Below the pieces are notes generated by a model. It did no database searches, was not told where the DNA came from, and saw only the letters and a program-made list of their open reading frames with translations. A stretch of DNA of 64,000 bases from positions 53,692,001-53,756,000 of the forward strand of contig OZ024741.1 in assembly GCA_964016885.1 (NCBI GenBank), given 5' to 3'. The translations under genes and the position numbers were made by a program. The stretch comes from Eledone cirrhosa (lineage: Eukaryota). Position 1 is the stretch's first letter; the number at the start of each line of letters is the position of its first letter. Shown piece by piece: positions 1,935 to 58,452 of the stretch.

Positions 1935-2306
1935 TGAAAATTAGAATTGGTGCTCATACAGTGTATTGCAAAATCACTATATATACATTCATATATATAT
2001 CGCTATATCAGAGCACCAATTCTAATTTTCAATTTCCGCTTGACCGGCAACCGCTCCATATAATCAGTTCCTGATTATTACTAGAATTCTATAAGAATCT
2101 AATATTCATGATTTTCAGCAAACAGGTGGAATAGTTAGCTTTGATAAGCACCAAAAAGTGTGAAACAGAGCTCTGTCAGCTTTATCTCCCCTGTTTGCTG
2201 AAAATTAAAGTAAGTGAGACTGTCACTACTCTAAAACAATAGCGTAAGGTCTTCGAAATGCTTTTAATTAAGCATACAGTGTATTGCAAAATACACTATA
2301 TATACA

Positions 2307-2315
<9 letters not shown>
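1935..2315 (+). mobile_element. Retrozyme-like ~318-bp unit (family B) with terminal redundancy and short 5' inversion
   Basis: CATACAGTGTATTGCAAAA recurs at 1955 and 2273. 1935-1955 is the reverse complement of 2011-2031. Homologous to 13690-14389 and flanked by (TA)n. Confidence 0.75.
2137..2181 (+). ncRNA. Type I hammerhead ribozyme, U3-A8 variant
   Basis: agct-TTGATAA-gcac caaaaa gtgt-GAAA-cagagctct-GTC-agct. Stem III is palindromic. Outer helix 2111-2126/2190-2205. Confidence 0.75.
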
Positions 2316-2369
<54 letters not shown>

Positions 2370-3943: not shown

Positions 3944-4142
3944 AGTAGAGATCGAGAGAGATCGAGAGGGATAGAGAGAAAGAGAGAAGGGGAAGAGGCA
4001 GAGAGATAGAAAGACACTAAATATATGTATGGTGTTTGTATAATATGATTTGAAATCACTTGAAATACAAATTTAGTTTCTACTTTCATAAAGCGTGACA
4101 AATCCCTGGTGACGAAATAGGAATAATTCTATCTATCTATCT

Positions 4143-7100
4143 ACTGGAATGGTATCCTAGATGCACGCTGGGACTACGTAGGGGCCTGCCCCGATAGAGA
4201 GGGGTGTAATAGCCTCAAAGGGTTAATCGGTCGATTTGACCTGGCCGATAGATATCGACTAGATTTTCCGACTGCGCCAACCTGGACTTGGGCAAATCGT
4301 AGCGGATCATCTAGGTCGTACCTAGATAGGTTCTTAGTTAGAATTAAGGATAAGGACTTTTTAAGTTGTCCAAAAATGCGCATGGTTGGCTATTCAGACC
4401 ACAAATTAGTGACCTGCATGGTCAACCTTGACAGAACTCATAGACAGGGCCCCGGTTACTGGAAGCTCAACTTGTCCTTGCCGGCAAGTAGAGCCTACAG
4501 GAATCGGATTAGTACGTTAGTTAAGGAACGGTTGACTGGAGCGATCGTCAACAGCAGGTGGTGGGTATCTCTAAAGAGAGAGATTAGAGTAGTCTCGATA
4601 GAATTTAGTAAGGTTCTAGCTGCGGATAGGAATAGGAAGGAAAGGGAGCTAATAGATAGAGTAGAAGAGGCAATTAGAAGCGGCGACGTGGCCAGAGTGC
4701 TAGCGTCGAGAACGGCTTTGAGCCAGTTTTTCGACGCGAAGCACGAAGGCTGCGTTGTCCGAAGTAAAATACGTGCTCTAGGGAACGAGGGGACCAAAGC
4801 TGTTAGCTGGGCCCGCGTGACAGAGGCCAACAGTGGAACTAAATCCACCATCCGGTCTTTGCGAGACCTGGATGGACGGGCGATTCTTGAGCCTAAGCAG
4901 ATGTGTGAGGCCTTTCAAAGGCACTTTGCCCGACTGTTCGGGAGGGGCGGGGAGCCGGTTGGGAACGTGGACTTCGGTCCATACCTCGACGGCCTGCCGC
5001 GCCTCTCGGACAGGGAGGCGAAGTCCTGCGAGGAGCCGATTTCGGCCGCTGAGATAGAGGAGGTGCTGAGCCAATGCAGCAAACGCAAATCCCCGGGTCT
5101 CGATGGTCTTCCTTACGAATTATATCTAGCTATGCCGGACTTGTTCCCCGATCTCCTCGAGGCGGTCTACTGCAACTGGCAACAGAACGGGAGAATTCCC
5201 TGTACTGTGACCAAGGGCGTAGTCACGCTAGTGAGGAAGGACGAGAACAAGGGGGACGATATAAATAATTTCAGGCCCATAACTCTGCTAAATACAGAGT
5301 TACAGATTTTGGCCAAGGTGCTAGCAAAGAGGTTGGCGCTTGTCGTGGGCAACCTGGTGGGAGATGCGCATACATGCGCTATCCCGTCCAGGTCCATCCA
5401 TGACAACCTCCACCTCATGCGATAAATCATAGAGAGGGTTGGGAACGAACCCGGCTTTGGTGGGGCTCTGATCAACTTGGATCAATCTAAGGCGTTCGAT
5501 AGGGTCGACCATGGTTATCTGGATGCGGTGCTAGCAGCGGCAGGCTTCGGACCCGTTTTTAGGGGCTGGATCACTGCTATGCACAGCAGCCGCATCTGCT
5601 CTAGTGTCAAGGTGAACGGCTACCTCTCGGAGCCGTTCAAAATCGCGCGGTCCATCCGACAAGGGTGCCCTCTCTCCTCCCTTCTGTATGTGTTGACTCT
5701 CGAGCCACTACTGCGGGAGTTGGAGTTGTTGCAGGGCATCCCTTTGGAACCGGGATTGCGGAAAGCGGTGTCGGCCTACGCCGATGACGTGACAGTAATG
5801 GTGTCGACGGCCTCCGAAATCGAGGCGGTCGGCACCTTACTGGAGCAGTACGAAAAGTTCACAGGGGCTAAGCTGAACCGGGACAAGTCGATCGGTTTGC
5901 AACTCGGCACGTGGAGGGGCAGACCGATGCCCTCCGATGGCGTCGTCGGACGCTGGACGGAGGGCCTGGTGAAGTTGCTCGGGGTCTGGTTCGGACCGGA
6001 CCTCCAGGTGGAGAAAAGCTGGGCGGAGGTTACGAACAGGGTGTTTGCACTGACCCAGAAGTGGGCCAGTTGCAAACTATCCCTGAAAGGTCGGGCGGAG
6101 GTGGCGAACACCTACATAGCGTCCGTCATCTACTACCGTCTGACCGTAGTGCCCTGCCCAATGGAAACCCTCACCAAGATGGAGCGCGCGCTCTTCCAAT
6201 TCCTTTGGAAGAGGCGGGCTCCTATGGTGCGGAGATCCATCTGCTGTCAACACCCTTCGAAAGGAGGGCTGGGGATGCCGTGGCTAATGGTGCGTAAACA
6301 CGCATTAAGGCTACGGCACCTCTACGTATTCCTCACCGGACAACCGGTGTGGGCCTCGTTTGTGAGACGAACCTTTCCCAGACTCGTCTCACTCACCGAG
6401 CTGCAATCCTGGGTCAAGCAAAGACCGAGAAAACTGGGCGCCTGGCACACTGAGTGTGCCCAGGCGCTCACCGCCCTCTGGCAGGCGGATCCGGTTGTCA
6501 GTGGAGACTCCACCGCAACATTCTATAGAGGGCTGGTACGCAGCAGGTGCGACGACGCCCTCGGAGAAGCCCTAGACATGGAGGAGGACGAACTGGCCGG
6601 CCTGTTCGGTAGGACATTCAGCCCGGGACCTATGGACAACTTCCAGAAGTCCCTGGCCTAGCAGTGCTACCGAGGAGCTTTACCCGTTCGAGAAATGCTC
6701 CACAGACACGGGCGCCCGGGTAGGGACCCCGCCAAAAAGATCTGTCCCAGATGCGTGTGCGACGAGGAAACCGTTGCACACGCATTGGTACACTGCTCGG
6801 GCGTAGCCGATCTGTGGGGCTATGTCGAACAACTGCTGTCAAGGGTGGGACCGATCCGGTTGACCACCGAGTCTATTGTAATGATCAAGCCGCCACCCCC
6901 TTCAAAGATGAAGCAGAGGCGGTGTTTCTGTGCGTAATAGCCATGGCGAAAGAGGTTGTATGGTGGACGCGTCTGAAAGGACTGAGGTCTGGCACCTTTC
7001 TCTCTGGCCAACAACTGGTCCGTTTCTTCCGATATCATTTCGGAAGAAGGATCAGGATGGAGAGAGAGGTGCTTCACCCCAGTCGTTTTTATGAAAGGTG

Positions 7101-12326: not shown

Positions 12327-13249
12327 TACGATCTATACGCGGATAATTTACGTCTTGATGTGGTAGCTAAGTATATGTTATGTTTATACCATTACTTATT
12401 TGCATAGGTAAGTATATATTACATGTATGTTTTGTGAAGGTACGTATACTTTCTCGTACGTATATTTGATTGTATATGTTATGGTGTATATTTTATATAT
12501 TCTGGTACATATGCTTTTGGTTATGTGTATACCGTGAGTTTTGCGTCTGTGTGAGTATGCGTGTTCGTACGTATGTAGGGTGTGTGTATATGTGTACTTC
12601 GTGTTTTGGTTGACGTACGTCTCCGAACATTTGTGTATTTACATGTAGGTATGTGTGTGCGCTTGTTATATACGTATTTATTTATTTATATACGTTTATT
12701 TAATTATTTGTATACACGCACCCATACACATATTTATATGTGCGTGTATTTGTATACATATAGCAATTGTTTTCGCGTATGCTTGTGTATCTACGTATTT
12801 GGATGCGTGTATGTATTTATTTAATTTCAATTACCTTTGTATTTTTTTACTTTATTCTTAACTCTGAAGCGGAGAATCATTCGGTTTCCTAGTTAGGACT
12901 TTAGTCTAAGACTTCAGTTATACCATTTACGTGGTTTTGTCTTTGTGTGCAATTGTTCTCCACGCTCCACATATGACGTATTATCTTCGTTTTTCCCGTT
13001 CAATGCCAGAGAACGTCTCTATGAACCACCTAAGAGAATATTAGTCTACGACTTCTTTTATACCATAAACGTGGTTCTGTCTTTGCGTGTAATTGCTATT
13101 CAGCGCTCCAATTAATAACGTATTATATTCGTTTTTTCCCGTTCTTTGCCAGGGAACGTTTCCACGAACCAAAGTATCGTCTTCCTGTCTTCCTCCGGTC
13201 GCAACGTTTTTTGAAATAATCACTTCTGCGTTTACAGATTGACTTTGTT

Positions 13250-13300
13250 AGTTTCAGAAGATCACGTTAAGGGTGAAAGCAGCGATTCTTTGCTTAAACT
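13250..13300 (+). ncRNA. Type I hammerhead ribozyme variant (CAGAAGA core, CUU site); copies at 11527-11577(-) and ~13482-13532(+)
   Basis: agttt-CAGAAGA-tcac gttaa gggt-GAA-agca gcgattctt tgct-T-aaact. Outer helix acagatt/aatctgt. Confidence 0.6.
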
Positions 13301-13397
13301 TTAATCTGTTATTTTAATAAATATTTGCTCTACGGTTCTTATATATTTGATATATATTTATCCTTATCGAACCCTCTTTGGATTTTAGTTTTCAAAT

Positions 13398-13480
<83 letters not shown>

Positions 13481-13485
<5 letters not shown>

Positions 13486-13631
13486 TCAGAAGATACCGTT
13501 AAGGGTGAAAGCAGCGATTCTTTGCTTAAACTTTAATTTTAATAAATATTGGCTCTACGGTACTTATATATTTGATATATATTTTCCTTATCGAGCCCTC
13601 TTTGTATTTTAGTCTCCAAATGTATTATTAT

Positions 13632-13636
<5 letters not shown>
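13481..13636 (+). mobile_element. Second short 3' fragment of PLE family C (other fragments at 18933-19040 and 31356-31463)
   Basis: Direct copy of 13250-13410, separated from it by (TA)n. Confidence 0.8.
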
Positions 13637-13687
<51 letters not shown>

Positions 13688-13816
13688 ATAATATATATAT
13701 ATAATGTATTTTGCAATACACTTTATGCTTAATTAAAAGCATTTTGAAGACCGTAAGCTATTGTTTTAAAGTAGTGACAAATTCACTCACTTTGATCTCA
13801 GCAAACAGGGGAGATA

Positions 13817-13860
13817 AGCCGACAAGACTTGTTTCGCTTTGGTTGAAGCTTATCAAGGCC
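13817..13860 (-). ncRNA. Type I hammerhead ribozyme, U3-A8 variant
   Basis: Minus strand: ggcc-TTGATAA-gctt caacca aagc-GAAA-caagtctt-GTC-ggct. Outer helix ctcagcaaacagg/cctgtttgctgag. Confidence 0.75.
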
Positions 13861-14132
13861 AACTACCCAACCTGTTTGCTGAGATCATTGATGTTATATT
13901 CTTATAGAAATCTAGTAAATAATCAGGAGCTGATTATGCAGAGCGGTTGTTGGTCAGGCAGAAATTAAAAATTAGAATTAGAGCTCTGAAATAGCAATAT
14001 ATATATGGATGTATATATAATGTATTTTGCAATACACTTTATGCTTAATTGAAAGCATTTTGAAGACCGTAAGCTATTGTTTTAAAGTAGTGACAAATTC
14101 ACTCACTTTGATCTCAGCAAACAGGGGAGATA

Positions 14133-14176
14133 AGCCGACAAGACTTGTTTCGCTTTGTTTGAAGCTTATCAAGGCC
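14133..14176 (-). ncRNA. Type I hammerhead ribozyme, U3-A8 variant (second tandem unit)
   Basis: Same motif 316 bp away from the first. Confidence 0.72.
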
Positions 14177-14453
14177 AACTGTTTACTGAGATCATTGATG
14201 TTATATTCTTATAGAAATCTAGTAAATAATCAGTTTGCTGAGATGAAAGTGAGTGAATTTGTCACTACTTTAAAACAATAGCTTACGGTCTTCAAAATGC
14301 TTTTAATTAAGCATAAAGTGTATTGCAAAATACATTATATATACATCCATATATATATTGCTATATCAGAGCTCCAATTCTAATTTTTTATATATATATA
14401 TAAATATATATATAATATATATATATATAAATATATATATAAATATATATATA

Positions 14454-14577
<124 letters not shown>

Positions 14578-14649
14578 TAAATTAGTGAGAATCGTATTTC
14601 GGCTATTGGAAATATATATATATATTCTTATATATATATATGCATACAT

Positions 14650-14806
<157 letters not shown>

Positions 14807-19782: not shown

Positions 19783-21682
<1,900 letters not shown>

Positions 21683-21695
21683 ATATATATATATG

Positions 21696-21846
<151 letters not shown>

Positions 21847-21891
21847 AGGAAAAGCGAAGTAGTTTCAGATGTTCAAGTCCTTTAATAATAA

Positions 21892-21967
21892 TGCTGTGAT
21901 ATATATTTCAATGACGACACTGGTCACACTGTTCTGTGAGCGAGTGTCGTGACATCATCAGACAGCA
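21892..21967 (-). ncRNA. Type I hammerhead ribozyme with extended stem II
   Basis: Minus strand: tgctgt-CTGATGA-[acgacact/agtgtcgt helix]-GAAA-tatat-ATC-acagca. Confidence 0.75.
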
Positions 21968-22070
21968 TGTTACATAATAAGGTTATGTTTCCGAGGCAAT
22001 CCAAATTGAATCGACAGGGGAACGGATTCAATTTGGATTGCCTCGGAAACATAACCTTATTATGTAACAA

Positions 22071-22145
22071 GTTGTCTGATGATGTCACGACACTCGCACA
22101 CAGAACAGTGTGGCCAGTGTCGTCATTGAAATATATATCACAGCA
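22071..22145 (+). ncRNA. Type I hammerhead ribozyme with extended stem II
   Basis: gttgt-CTGATGA-45 nt stem II-GAAA-tatat-ATC-acagc. Confidence 0.75.
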
Positions 22146-22283
22146 TTATTATTAAAGAACTTGAACATCTGAAACTACTTCGCTTTTCCTTATTCGATAT
22201 TTACTCCGTCACTCCTATGTGGAAAAAGTACGTTGAGTGCTTGAATTGAATTGCATCTATGTTTACCCTAATATATATATATA

Positions 22284-22365
<82 letters not shown>

Positions 22366-25283: not shown

Positions 25284-27103
25284 ATGGCGGAAAAGATGGC
25301 AGACATGTCTGCCATTAGCTCTGCCACGCCCCCCAAGTCTGAAGAACAAAAAATAATTACAACAAAATTAGACAATGAAACAAACAAAGAAAATGAAAAA
25401 ACAAATGTTAAGGAAAATGAGCAAACAGAAAACAAACAAACAGAAAATAATACAAATAACAACAGGGCAACTTTCGCCCAGAAAACAAAACAATCCATTA
25501 CATACACACCAATTGACCTAACTGCCGCCAGAGAAAAACTGGCCGAAGCAAAGAAACACATTGTTTTGGGGGGAGAACGGAATGTTTTTCATTAACTCCC
25601 CCCCAGAATTCAAGAAAGCCAGAGCAGAAAACACAGTTCTCTACAGAACTATACTGAACCAGACAAGAAAGCCAGCACAGCCCAGCCAAATGGAAATAGA
25701 GTTAGTCCTAAAAGACTATATGAAGAATATTCTCTTCATACGAAAGGACCGACTCTATGGCAGCATTTCGGTCCTAACAAGAGACAGGGAAACGGCGGAG
25801 AAGCTTTCCCTAAGCCCACTCTCATCGACAACATATAGCTTCTATCCCTCCTACATGGGTAGAAGAACACAGAGAGTAAAAGTAAAAACAATGCTGCCCA
25901 CAATGGACTTCTGGTGGGCTATTGCTGGCTTCATTGATATGGGCGAAGACACAATGCTGTCAATGGGGAGGGCAACTGGAGATACGTTCCTGGGAATGGG
26001 CCTCGACATACTAGTCCAAATGAGGCCCAAAAGAATAGCACAAATCCCGGATCGCATCTGGCTGGATGACCTTACCCCAATAGACATAATTGTAGAGGGG
26101 AGAAGACCAGCATGCTATTTATGCATGGAAAGGGGACACGTTAAGGCTAACTGCCCGAAACGTATCCCCCAAAAAGGACTATTGCCCACACCCACCACAA
26201 ACAGTACACCAACACCACCCACCTCCAAAAATACACTAATACCACACACAGCAAACAAAATACAGACACCACCAACCACAAACACAACACAAACATCACC
26301 ACCACCAGCACCAAACACAAGCACGACACAAAAATCACCACCACCAACCACAACACAAACACCACCATCACCAACCACAAGCACGACACAAACATTACCA
26401 CCACCACCACAAAACCCATTCCAAACAAATAATTAAAAAAACAGTAACAAATCTACCCCTCCCGCAAAAAAAAACAACCACACAACACGTCCCTCCCACC
26501 TAGCGCTGAAGAGTTTCCCCCAACTTCTGAAGAAGAAGGAGGAGAAGCCTTCAGACAAGTTAAAAGAAAAAAAAGAAAACACACACCCAGCACACCACAA
26601 ATAACCCACACACAAACACCAACTCCAATCAAAAACACCCCACAAACAAAAATAAATCTGCGCCTCCCCTCTCCGAAACATTGACAGCATCACAAAAAAA
26701 GACGTTGCAATACACATATATAAATAAAGAAAACAAAAAACTGGTTAAATTAATAAACAATAACCCTATGGTGCAGACCGAAGGGCCAAACTTTATCTCA
26801 ACAGAGAACTTCACCCATTTAAAAATGATAAAGGTCCCTCTGGACCTTTATCGTTCCTTAAAAGAACAATTTAGACGGGACGTGAGCCCCCCCTGTTTAA
26901 AACCGTTGAATCGCGTCCTCTTGAAAGATTTCCCCATAACCGCCCCTCTCCCTGACACAACTCCAAATACCCCAACCCCACCACACACGTGTACCCCCAC
27001 ACCACCACAAAACATCCCTCCACCCAACACACCTGATGCCATGGAAATTACGCAACCCGGAGAGGTAAGTGCTTTTCTTTCTTCACTTTCAACACCAAAA
27101 TAG
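25284..27103 (+). pseudogene. Tx1 ORF1 (gag-like, CCHC knuckle, Pro/Thr-rich), frameshifted
   Basis: ATG at 25284, IIVEGRRPACYLCMERGHVKANCP, FRQVKRKKRK. Breaks near 25570 and 26430-26680. Confidence 0.8.
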
Positions 27104-30100
27104 ATCAATTGAGAGTTGGCTGTTTGAACGCGCGTGGCCTGGGCTCAGCTTGGAAGCAAGCAAAGCTTCTAAGTGACCTCAGGTCACAAAGTATAGATGT
27201 GATGGTTGTTTGCGAGAGTCGGATCAGCAGCGTGAGACAGCTGGCGCCCGCCTTCGATGACTTTGAGATGCACGCATCTCTCTGTCAACCCGGAGGAGGG
27301 GGGGGGGAAGTGCCGTACTGCTGGATAAACGTCTGACTCTCGACGTACAGATTGTTCACTCGGACCCGGGGGGTCGATTACTGGTGCTGGACGTCGGAGG
27401 CGGTGAAGGCGGGGCTTTCAGACTGGTCGGTCTTTATGCTCCCTTCGGGGCGGAAAGAGCCGACTTCTTCCAGCGTCTGGAGACTTTTCTAGGAACGTCG
27501 CGTTCCCTGCTTTTAGTGGGGGACTGGAATGGAATCCTAGATGCGCGTTGGGACTATGCAGGGGCATGTCCCGATAGAGGGGGGTGTAGCAGCCTCAAGG
27601 GGTTACTCGATCGATTCGACCTGGTCGATAGATTTCGACTAAATTGTCCAACTGCGCCAACCTGGACCTGGGTAAACCGCAGTGGACAATCTAGATCGTA
27701 CCTAGATAGGTTTTTGGTTAGGAGTAAGGATAGGGACGTATTTAGTTGTCCAGAACTGATCATGGTTGGCTATTCAGATCACAAATTAGTGACCTGCGTG
27801 GTCAACCTTGATAGAACGCATAGACAGGGTCCCGGTTACTGGAAGATGAACTTGTCCTTACCGACAAAGAAAGATTACAGAAACCGGATTAGTAGCTTAG
27901 TTAAGATGCGGTTGACGGGAGCGATCGTCAACAGTAGGTGGTGGATATCTCTAAAGAGAGAGATTAGAGTAAGTTCGATAGGTTACAGTAAGGAACTAGC
28001 GGCGAATAGAAATAGGAGGGAAAGGGAGTTAACAGATAAACTAGAAGAGGCGATTAGGAGCGGAGACGTAGCCAGAGTGTTAGCGACGAGAACGGCATTG
28101 AGCCAGTTCTTTGACGCGAAGCACGAAGGCTGCGTTGTCCGAAGTAAAATACGTGCTTTAGGAAACGAGGGGACCAAAGCTGTTAGCTGGGCCCGCGTGA
28201 CAGAAGCCAAGAGTGGGATTAAATCCACCATTAGGTCTTTGCGAGACCAGGATGGACGGGTGATCCTTGGACCTGAGCGAATGTGCGAGACCTTTCAAAG
28301 GCACTTTGCTCGACTGTTCGGAGGTGGCGGGGGGCCGGACGGGGATGTGGACTTCGGTCCATACCTCGACGGTCTACCGTGTCTTTCGAGCGGCGAAGCG
28401 GAGTGCTGCGAAAGGCCAATCACAGCCACTGAAATCGGGGAAGCGCTCAGCCAATGCAGCAGACGCAAATCTCCGGGTCTCGATGGTCTACCATACGAAC
28501 TTTATTTAGCTATGCCGGTCTTGTTCTCCGAACTCCTCGAGGCTGTCTATTGCAACTGGCAACAGAACGGGAGAATTCCCTGTTCTGTGACCAAGGGCGT
28601 GGTCACGCTAGTGAGGAAGGACGAGAGCAAGGGGGACGACTTAAGTAACTTTAGGCCCATAACTCTGCTGAATGCAGAGTTACAGATTTTGGCCAAGGTG
28701 TTGGCGAAGAGGTTGGCGCTTGTGGTGGGTGGTTTGGTGGGAGACGCGCAGACATGCGCTATCCCGTCCAGGTCCATTCACGACAACCCCCACCTCATGC
28801 GATACATCATAGAGAGGGTTGGCTACGAACCCCGCTTTGGTGGGGCCCTGATCAACTTGGATCAATCTAAGGCGTTCGATAGGGTCGACCATGGTTACCT
28901 GGATGCGGTGCTAGCGGCGGCGGGCTTCGGACCCGTTTTCAGGGGCTGGATTTCTGCCATGCACAGTGGCAACATCTACTCTAGGATTAAAGTAAACGGC
29001 TACCTCTCGGAGCCGTTTCAAATCACCCGATCCATCAGACAGGGGTGCTCCCTCTCCTCCCTTCTGTACGTATTGACTCTCGAGCCACTGCTGCGGAAGT
29101 TGGAGTTGCTGCGGGGCATACCCCTGGAACCGGGATTGCACAAAGCGGTCTCGGCCTATGCCGACGACGTAACAGTAATGGTGGCGGACGCCTCGGAAAT
29201 CGGGGCGATCGCCACCCTACTGGAGGAATACGAAAGGCTGACGGGGGCTAAGCTGAACCAGGACAAGTCAGTCGGTTTGCAACTCGGAACGTGGAGGGGC
29301 AAACCGATGCCGTTAGACGGTGTCGTCGGGCGGTGGACGGAGGGCCCGGTGAAGCTGCTCGGGGTCTGGTTCAGACCGGACCTCCAGGTGGAGAAGAATT
29401 GGGGCGAGGTGACGAGCAGGGTGTTTGCGCTGACCCAGAAGTGGGCCAAGTGCAAACTATCACTGAAAGGTCGGGCGGAGGTGACGAACGCTTACATAGC
29501 GTCCGTCATCTACTACCGCCTGACCGTCGTGCCTTGCCCCAAGGAAAAGCTCACCATCATGGAACGCATGCTCTTCCAGTTCCTCTGGAAGAAGCGGCCT
29601 CCCATGGTGAGGAGATCCATCTGCTGCCAGCACCCTTCGAAAGGAGGGCTGGGTATGCCGTGGCTGTTGATGCGTAGGCACGCATTGAGGCTACGGCATC
29701 TACAGGTATTCCTCAACGGTCAGCCGGTGTGGGCCCCGTTTGTGAGGCGAGCCTTCCCACAGCTCGTCTCGCTCACCGAACTGCAATCCTGGGTGAAGCA
29801 AAGACCGAGAAAACTGGGCAACTGGCACACCGAGTGTGCCCAGGCGCTCACGGCTATCTGGCAAGCGGACCCGACTGTCAGTGGAGAATCCACCTCGACA
29901 TTCTATAGAGGGTTGGTGGCTAGCAGGGGCGACGACACCCTTGGAGAGTCGCTAGGCATGGAGGAGGACGAACTGGCCAGCCTGTTCGGTAGAACTTTCG
30001 GCCCAGGACCCATGGACAACTTCCAGAGGTCCCTAGCCTGGCAGTGTTACCGGGGGGCTCTGCCCGTTCGAGAAAAGCTCTACAGACACGGGCGCCCGGG

Positions 30101-30539
30101 CAGGGATCCCGCGAAAAAGATCTGTCCCAGATGCGTGCGCGACGAGGAAACCGTTGCGCATGCACTGGTACACTGCCCGGGCGTTGCCGATCTGTGGGGC
30201 TACGTCGAACGACTGCTGTCGCGTGTGGCGCCGATTCGATTAACCGCCGAGTCTGTGGTGAACATCAAGCCGCCTCCTCCCTTCAGAAATGAAGCAGAGG
30301 CGGTCTTTCTGTGCGTAATAGCCATGATGAAAGAGGTTGTGTGGTGGACGCGCCTGAAAGGTCTGAGGTCGGGTGACTTTCTCTCCGGCCATCACCTGGT
30401 TTACTTCTTCCGATACCTCTTCGGAAGAAGAATCAGGATGGAGAGAGAAGTGCTTGGTCCCAGACAGTTTTATGAAAGGTGGGTGAAAGAAGCGAGAATG
30501 GCCCGTGTAAATGGGCCTTCTCTCTACATTGTTCTGTAG
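27100..30539 (+). CDS. Tx1 ORF2 (APE endonuclease - reverse transcriptase - Cys/His domain); one frameshift in a G run near 27300
   Basis: GCLNARGL, VGDWNG, SYLDRF, SDHKLV, KSPGLDG, DQSKAFD, YADD, CPRC..HALVHC. 1051 codons are open after the frameshift. The start codon is unclear (ATA at 27100). Confidence 0.9.
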
Positions 30540-58258: not shown

Positions 58259-58452
58259 TTAATATAGATGAGATTCTACAGGACTAGAACTGTTTCATTC
58301 TTTAGAAATCATCAGGAATCTTCTGATGATTTCTAAAGAATGAAACATTTCTAGTCCTGTAGAATCTCATCTATATTAACATTGTTATACTCTGCTATAT
58401 ATTGAGTACCTTACTTACTGTGGTTACCTCCGATTCAACCCGGAATAACTTA

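Follow-up and report, generated by a model that had tools for sequence, protein, structure and literature searches.

A hammerhead retrozyme family of Eledone cirrhosa forming head-to-head arrays in (AT)n, likely copied by Penelope-like element enzymes

The window analysed here, a 64,000-nt stretch of the Eledone cirrhosa genome (contig OZ024741.1, positions 53,692,001 to 53,756,000), contains two insertions of a repeat carrying a hammerhead ribozyme. The larger one (subfamily A, 13690-14391) consists of two arms, of which the left arm (13690-14232, minus strand) holds approximately 1.8 head-to-tail units of 316 bp and stops at its 3′ end within the AT tract of the unit itself, without a tail, continuing into an (AT)n microsatellite (13635-13689). 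The inverted right arm (14233-14391, plus strand) comprises unit positions 15-173 without the ribozyme, lies head-to-head with the left arm, to which it is 96.9% identical over 159 bases, and is the only arm ending in a tail of the type known from Penelope-like elements (PLEs; 14360-14389, plus strand), which reaches about 26-30 bases past the internal AT tract and is followed by a second (AT)n-rich tract (14392-14695). Both 3′ ends point outward into (AT)n, and these two tracts are the putative target. The insertion sits in (TA)n at the end of an unclassified repeat (13000-13635), which was also seen beside many other loci and beside PLE ends in (TA)n. In transcripts reading through both arms, these would pair into a hairpin of 159 bp, on which RNA editing or silencing might act.

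The left arm contains two type I hammerheads on the minus strand, at 13817-13860 (U3 at 13856, predicted cut after C17 at 13821) and at 14133-14176 (U3 at 14172, predicted cut after C17 at 14137). The first has stem I GGCC/GGCU, the core UUGAUAA (with a U3-A8 pair), stem II GCUU/AAGC and a near-palindromic stem III, and is enclosed by a 16-bp outer helix (13794-13886, minus strand, with 13794-13809 pairing with 13871-13886) that covaries across subfamilies, while the second has a 9-base deletion immediately 5′ of stem I. The predicted cuts are 316 nt apart, and together would release one 316-nt monomer. Rfam model Hammerhead_HH9 gave scores of 26.2 and 24.3 bits (E 3e-4 and 1e-3 for a 671-base stretch) against a gathering score of 52, and the unit folds with a z-score of -7.1 relative to shuffled sequences. 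The array was absent from the output of Tandem Repeats Finder, and the 150 matches listed in an Rfam scan of the whole window were discarded as small-RNA matches driven by microsatellites.

The smaller insertion (subfamily B, 1936-2319) has a main arm of 1.2 units with a period of 318 (1955-2319, plus strand), with a tail-less 3′ end running into (AT)n, and a short second arm (1936-1954, minus strand) that is a 19-base inverted stub of tail sequence, also facing (AT)n. Its type I hammerhead (2137-2181, plus strand) has the core UUGAUAA with U3 at 2141, a predicted cut after C17 at 2177, and a stem III of 12 nt that is perfectly palindromic. The initial annotation had described a 316-bp tandem with a diverged relative at 1935-2315; the spacing of the two cut sites bears out the period, but the array comprises only the 1.8 units and an inverted arm lacking the ribozyme, and the relative is indeed 84% identical across 388 columns, but with its own period, little more than one unit and the inverted stub. 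Hammerheads with the UUGAUAA core are present at both loci as it had reported (three type I folds, with U3 at 13856, 14172 and 2141), and all the helices that it quoted for stems I, II and III and the outer helix were located in the sequence, although the G-U pair of its stem II "gcac/gtgt" is a minority form, as the commonest intact parse of subfamily B has GTGC in 13 copies and GTGT in two. It did not include the single-tailed, head-to-head anatomy, the link to PLEs, (AT)n as target or the self-complementarity of stem III.

Several other elements were found in the window. A second head-to-head inverted element (21841-22290) has 354-base arms that are 94% alike, each with a hammerhead-like motif read by eye (CUGAUGA, C3 at 21961, minus strand), in which stem I has 5 bp, stem II is long and bulged, and stem III is a palindrome of A and T only; this motif was present in 10 of the 322 loci examined, several of which overlap. 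At 58277-58315 (minus strand), the sequence again folds as a type I hammerhead, here with a canonical core, and the same motif recurs at two other loci (L296 and L307). Two copies of a non-LTR retrotransposon with endonuclease-reverse transcriptase frames, one of 1090 aa, were seen at 4127-6661 and 25522-30539 (plus strand). Finally, a 5′-truncated PLE (19900-21682, minus strand) encodes a reverse transcriptase (RT) and C-terminal GIY-YIG domain, and belongs to a family with 29,729 candidates in the genome. Members of this family end in (TA)n, may bear a tail of approximately 41 bases, and have a hammerhead-like motif of atypical form in the 3′ end. For a PLE protein of the window, the nearest named homologue is from Octopus bimaculoides (53% identity).

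Searches of the 3.0 Gb genome, with 40 candidates scored per search, identified at least seven subfamilies with units of 311 to about 330 bp. Subfamilies A (316 bp), B (318 bp), F (a single copy) and G (about 330 bp) have the U3-A8 core, subfamily C (317 bp) has CUGAGGA, and subfamilies D (311 bp) and E (315 bp) have CUGAUGA, the canonical core. First-look candidates numbered 743 for A, 2114 for B, 2148 for C, 152 for D, 2737 for E and 502 for G, while the exact 33-base core of subfamily A occurs 537 times genome-wide and the tail junction of the B/C type 1,900 times. Copies are dispersed over the genome, the longest arrays have 26 units, and no ORF of 150 aa was found over the unit. As non-coding units of 311-318 bp in A-E (170-400 nt being typical of the class), with two hammerheads at the subfamily A locus of the window and a dispersed distribution, these repeats show the testable features of non-LTR retrozymes, in agreement with the initial annotation, and the family is a newly found addition to that class. 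A search based solely on CUGANGA would overlook subfamilies A, B, F and G, as had been anticipated, and pipelines that require either CUGANGA or two full tandem units would overlook such loci. Divergence among insertions was 0.21% for D, 1.7% for A, 2.9% for B, 5.2% for C and 5.5% for E. Subfamily D is the youngest and probably still active; at its loci (L181-L194, for example G000:C18:1189500-1198500), up to 25 nearly identical copies of the 311-bp unit make up a head-to-head array. Subfamily A, with its U3-A8 core, expanded in a single past burst.

The hammerheads of the family have the type I core N3-U-G-A-N-N8-A, the GAAA and U16.1-H17 elements, and three helices, and are open at stem I. 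With one natural copy per subfamily, 83/84 cells of the helices and the 3-8 pair were paired, and both sides had changed in 9/12 pairs; the copy used for subfamily G has U-A at pair II.1, where most G copies have C-A, which gives 82/84. In an alignment of 11 rows, in which row D is shifted by one column in stems I and III, the 3-8 pair is U-A in six rows, C-G in five and unpaired in none, and 17/28 pairs were altered on both sides, a number matched by 0/500 shuffles, while sliding the alignment reduced the paired fraction from 93% to 33-47%; both the shuffle and slid controls ignore the relatedness of the rows. A tree from which the long-branch row L256 was omitted requires at least two exchanges between C-G and U-A at the 3-8 pair, and a single U3-A8 clade is rejected (p-AU 0.028). 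The helix covariation proposed from the two window loci thus holds over seven subfamilies, and the proposal that U3-A8 is compensatory is sustained by the finding that the 3-8 pairs at the subfamily level are only U-A or C-G. Its novelty is not, since the U3-A8 core by itself is not new: hammerheads with U3-A8 have been reported from nature, with activity in vitro according to Perreault et al. (2011, PMC3088659), approximately 1,300 U3-A8 matches were described for Schistosoma PLEs (PMC4209133), and U3-A8 cores are also found within autonomous PLEs of the E. cirrhosa genome, in two families with cores including UUGAUAA and UUGAAAA.

These comparisons indicate that the ribozyme fold is under selection between subfamilies. 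Among genomic copies, the core decays in an about neutral manner in B, C and D, and displays a weak deficit of changes in A (1 versus 5.5 expected, P 0.026), which is one of four tests and not robust. The near-neutral decay among copies suggests that selection acts on the templates that spread, rather than on the copies. Each of the seven subfamilies has a self-complementary stem III, which differs in sequence and measures 6-12 nt. This agrees with cleavage in dimeric form, and a dimer model with a palindromic helix III has been put forward for animal hammerheads (PMC4209133). For four natural dimers (with B and E left out), the double-hammerhead fold was favoured over two monomer folds by 3.9-8.6 kcal/mol. 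The active folds lie 1.3-4.5 kcal/mol above the minimum-energy folds, and in the best fold of a linear subfamily A monomer U3-U4-G5 is paired with stem III. Splice-like signals flank the hammerhead (AG before, GTRAGT after) in subfamilies A, B and C, and are missing from D.

The organisation of the insertions was scored for 134 insertions after removal of duplicates (32 of A, 30 of B, 29 of C, 14 of D and 29 of E), a set that contains both window insertions and for which 20 stretches were hand-picked as arrays from match lists. In 90 of these the arms were head-to-head with the 3′ ends outward, one had the reverse arrangement and 43 had a single orientation; an unselected sample, consisting of the first 100 exact matches to the A core on contig C1, gave 17 head-to-head and no reverse insertions in 43 clusters. 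Outer ends are located at two spots: the AT tract of the unit, some 140 bases past the cut site, and a point roughly 26 bases further along. When both ends of an inverted insertion could be classed, one was tailed and the other tail-less in 62/65 cases (P 1e-15), while a further 25 inverted insertions had an end outside both classes; seven of the unclassed ends were later recognised as tail-less, which brings the one-tail rule to 68/72. All 14 insertions of subfamily D follow this rule, and one E insertion (L233) retains part of its tail. AT-rich runs adjoin 77/93 tailed ends, compared with a background of 7-10%. No empty-site allele was seen for the scored insertions. Inverted arms and microsatellite flanks are also what would be expected of a DNA-level repeat, such as a satellite, foldback or MITE-like element with arms inverted by replication or recombination errors at (AT)n, and some of the long single-orientation arrays do behave like satellites. 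However, such errors do not account for a fixed polarity of 90 versus 1, for two discrete outer ends with one per arm, random inner ends and unequal arm lengths, or for a covarying RNA structure on one strand, and we regard this explanation, which is contradicted by the one-tail rule, as largely refuted and hardly credible.

The same anatomy is known from PLEs, whose insertions are described as partial tandems with an inverted truncated copy and a tail of 30-40 bp at one end, with (TA)n as target in some clades (PMC8557442). The purified anole Poseidon protein is reported to cut and extend both strands of AT-rich DNA, and RT to start at two internal sites, with the tail being the stretch between them (PMC11167929). 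Autonomous PLEs of the E. cirrhosa genome likewise have (TA)n ends, optional tails of about 33-60 bases and hammerhead-like motifs. From this agreement in shape we consider that the insertions were very probably made by a PLE enzyme. A candidate for an intact enzyme of this kind is a full-length Neptune-like PLE (L291, G000:C1:145869500-145877000) with a 938-aa open frame and two near-identical pseudo-LTRs (pLTRs), each with a U3-A8 minimal hammerhead. Two single chimeric junctions were found (L045 and L322), in which a unit is joined directly to the 3′ part of a PLE, from a different PLE family in each case. In the first (L045:1843-2266), a subfamily B arm joins the 3′ end of a Neptune-like PLE, carrying its own minimal hammerhead, over approximately 10 bases of microhomology, possibly by a template switch. 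At the second (L311/L322, G000:C1:56074000-56080500), a ribozyme-less 163-bp derivative repeated 3.7 times lies head-to-head with the 3′ half of a PLE, possibly as a single insertion from two templates.

Since the ends resemble those of autonomous PLEs, the units might instead be the 5′-truncated ends of an autonomous PLE, i.e. solo pLTRs, rather than an independent non-autonomous element. The search for a PLE partner covered the abundant PLE of the window, 30 GIY-YIG loci, 30 hammerhead-bearing Neptune-like loci and 20 long-ORF loci, and no sequence common to the unit and an autonomous PLE was found among the loci examined, separate nested insertions aside. This leaves some room for such a parent, as the loci read were 30 of the 150 GIY-YIG matches listed and the 20 long-ORF loci, out of 10,597 candidates. 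Against this stand the period of 311-330, with the unit preceded by another unit or an inverted arm in all subfamilies, and the BLAST searches of PLE proteins against the retrozyme loci, which gave only separate adjacent PLE pieces, making truncated pLTRs a very improbable source of these arrays.

The variation within arrays has a bearing on the form of the RNA template. In subfamily D, arms have up to 16.6 units with only 0.07-0.09% divergence inside an insertion. At four variant columns, all units covering the column in either arm carry the variant (21/21, 18/18, 11/11 and 6/6 units), every other variant is confined to one unit, and no variant of intermediate frequency was seen in 14 insertions. 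Inner ends are spread evenly over the unit (KS p 0.39) and do not cluster at the cut site. Rolling-circle copying would place a mutation of one circle in all units of both arms, and the all-or-none variants of D are therefore as expected if a single circle was copied in this way. The D pattern is best read, with fair but not high probability, as a bottleneck at the monomer stage followed by renewed multimerisation, for which a circle is the simplest form. Two-armed insertions of D have a median length of 11.75 units, versus 1.2-2.75 in the older subfamilies, and as the youngest subfamily has the longest insertions, this is the opposite of gradual growth. Divergence in subfamily A is the same within and between insertions (1.5-1.7%), and for this reason the circle step for A is carried over from D.

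A different template is also conceivable, with PLE enzymes mobilising linear, uncleaved multimers, unequal crossover lengthening the arrays later, and the hammerhead being a legacy of a pLTR and dispensable for copying. Hammerhead cleavage was indeed reported not to be required for PLE insertion in vitro (PMC11167929), local amplification has been proposed in a 2026 preprint (bioRxiv 10.64898/2026.07.22.740005), and a homogeneous source array would likewise yield all-or-none variants. Growth after insertion does occur in the family: variants of intermediate frequency are present in four A arrays (L195, L196, L317 and L318), several arrays of A and B bear marks of later local duplication, old single-orientation arrays reach 14-17 units, and the 163-bp derivative was multiplied without a ribozyme. 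The length of the two-armed insertions in the youngest subfamily and the lack of intermediate-frequency variants in its 14 insertions nevertheless argue against later lengthening, and the repeated compensatory changes of the hammerhead need selection on the fold, so that we regard copying from linear multimers as unlikely.

Weighing these observations, we consider it likely that a non-coding retrozyme was copied into (AT)n by the RT and endonuclease of a PLE, from an RNA of about 316 nt made by the ribozyme and probably circular. In the course of events that we propose, an array would be transcribed into multimeric RNA, in which neighbouring hammerheads are predicted to pair via the self-complementary stem III and to cut as a double hammerhead, with U3-A8 standing in for C3-G8, to give monomers that, as for other animal retrozymes, may be ligated into circles. 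On the basis of the insertion anatomy and published PLE biochemistry, the PLE protein would nick both strands of the AT-rich target, with one internal RT start for each strand, near unit positions 140 and 166 counted from the cut site, a spacing of 26 nt. Each cDNA would then be extended around the circle, for a number of rounds that varies at random, and be joined to the other at their 5′-truncated ends. What is observed is the product, two arrays lying head-to-head in (AT)n with a tail on one of them. We lean slightly towards the more specific reading that the arrays are fossils of rolling-circle target-primed reverse transcription, in which a pair of PLE enzymes used both (AT)n strands and two fixed starts on a ribozyme-made circle, for up to 16 rounds per arm. 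This makes exact predictions: RT would start once on each strand, at sites separated by 26 nt, and a circle of 311-318 nt would yield multimeric cDNA. If true, it would tie the circles of animal retrozymes mechanistically to PLE proteins, subfamily D would be a natural substrate that is still active, and sister subfamilies with C3-G8 and U3-A8 could be compared directly. PLE enzymes able to roll around RNA circles would also be relevant to the birth of satellites and to tools for RNA-templated insertion.

Non-LTR retrozymes have been described for metazoans (Cervera and de la Pena 2020, PMC7229834), and the E. cirrhosa family resembles these in its head-to-tail arrangement of non-coding, low-GC units that measure about 300 bp and each have a single type I hammerhead, in its co-occurrence with PLEs, and in the circular intermediates and PLE mobilisation proposed for them. 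In contrast to these retrozymes, most insertions described here lie in (AT)n and consist of two head-to-head arrays, of which one is tailed, and the circles are predicted from genomic copies. A 2026 preprint (Li, Clavereau and Pollet; bioRxiv 10.64898/2026.07.22.740005) presents retrozymes as non-autonomous derivatives of PLEs based on co-occurrence and pLTR trees, with one of nine Xenopus dimers cleaved in vitro; 24/57 Xenopus retrozyme families have a pLTR homologue, whereas none was found here among the PLE loci examined. Mobilisation by PLEs was thus proposed earlier from co-occurrence and pLTR similarity, and the insertion shape adds a different and unusually direct kind of evidence. The words "tail", "head-to-head" and "target site" are absent from the main text of the preprint, as are "inverted" and "target site" from that of the 2020 paper, and the text available for an octopus repeat-annotation paper (PMC13282606) does not use the word ribozyme; our literature search found no report of such retrozyme anatomy or of a cephalopod retrozyme, a point on which supplements may bear. 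The family does not belong with the LTR retrozymes of plants, characterised by a type III hammerhead in the LTRs and a 4-bp target duplication (bioRxiv 10.64898/2026.07.22.740005), given its type I topology and the absence of an LTR pair.

The U3-A8 variants described by Perreault et al. (PMC3088659) and the minimal hammerheads of Schistosoma Cercyon (PMC4209133) share the compensated 3-8 pair and a palindromic helix III for which a dimer is considered necessary. In the E. cirrhosa family stem III has 6-12 nt rather than being absent, and at least two switches are seen inside one family with C3-G8 sister subfamilies in the same genome. The non-autonomous Chlamys elements, such as MRC1 (PMC8557442), are likewise PLE passengers with multicopy head-to-tail insertions; unlike the E. 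cirrhosa family, they are described as generally sharing 3′ sequence with an autonomous family, in a clade without canonical hammerheads. A correspondence in insertion structure exists with the endonuclease-bearing (EN+) PLEs Neptune, Poseidon and Naiad (Craig et al. 2021, PMC8557442; Frangieh et al. 2024, PMC11167929), which according to these sources also form partial tandems with an inverted 5′-truncated copy and one tailed end, insert into AT-rich or (TA)n targets and have a hammerhead near the 3′ end. Where anole Poseidon starts in an AC-rich stem-loop without homology to the target, the ends of the E. cirrhosa family adjoin AT runs, and this family further differs from EN+ PLEs in having no ORF, a tail of 26 nt rather than 30-40, and arms that may both be long, perfect multimers.
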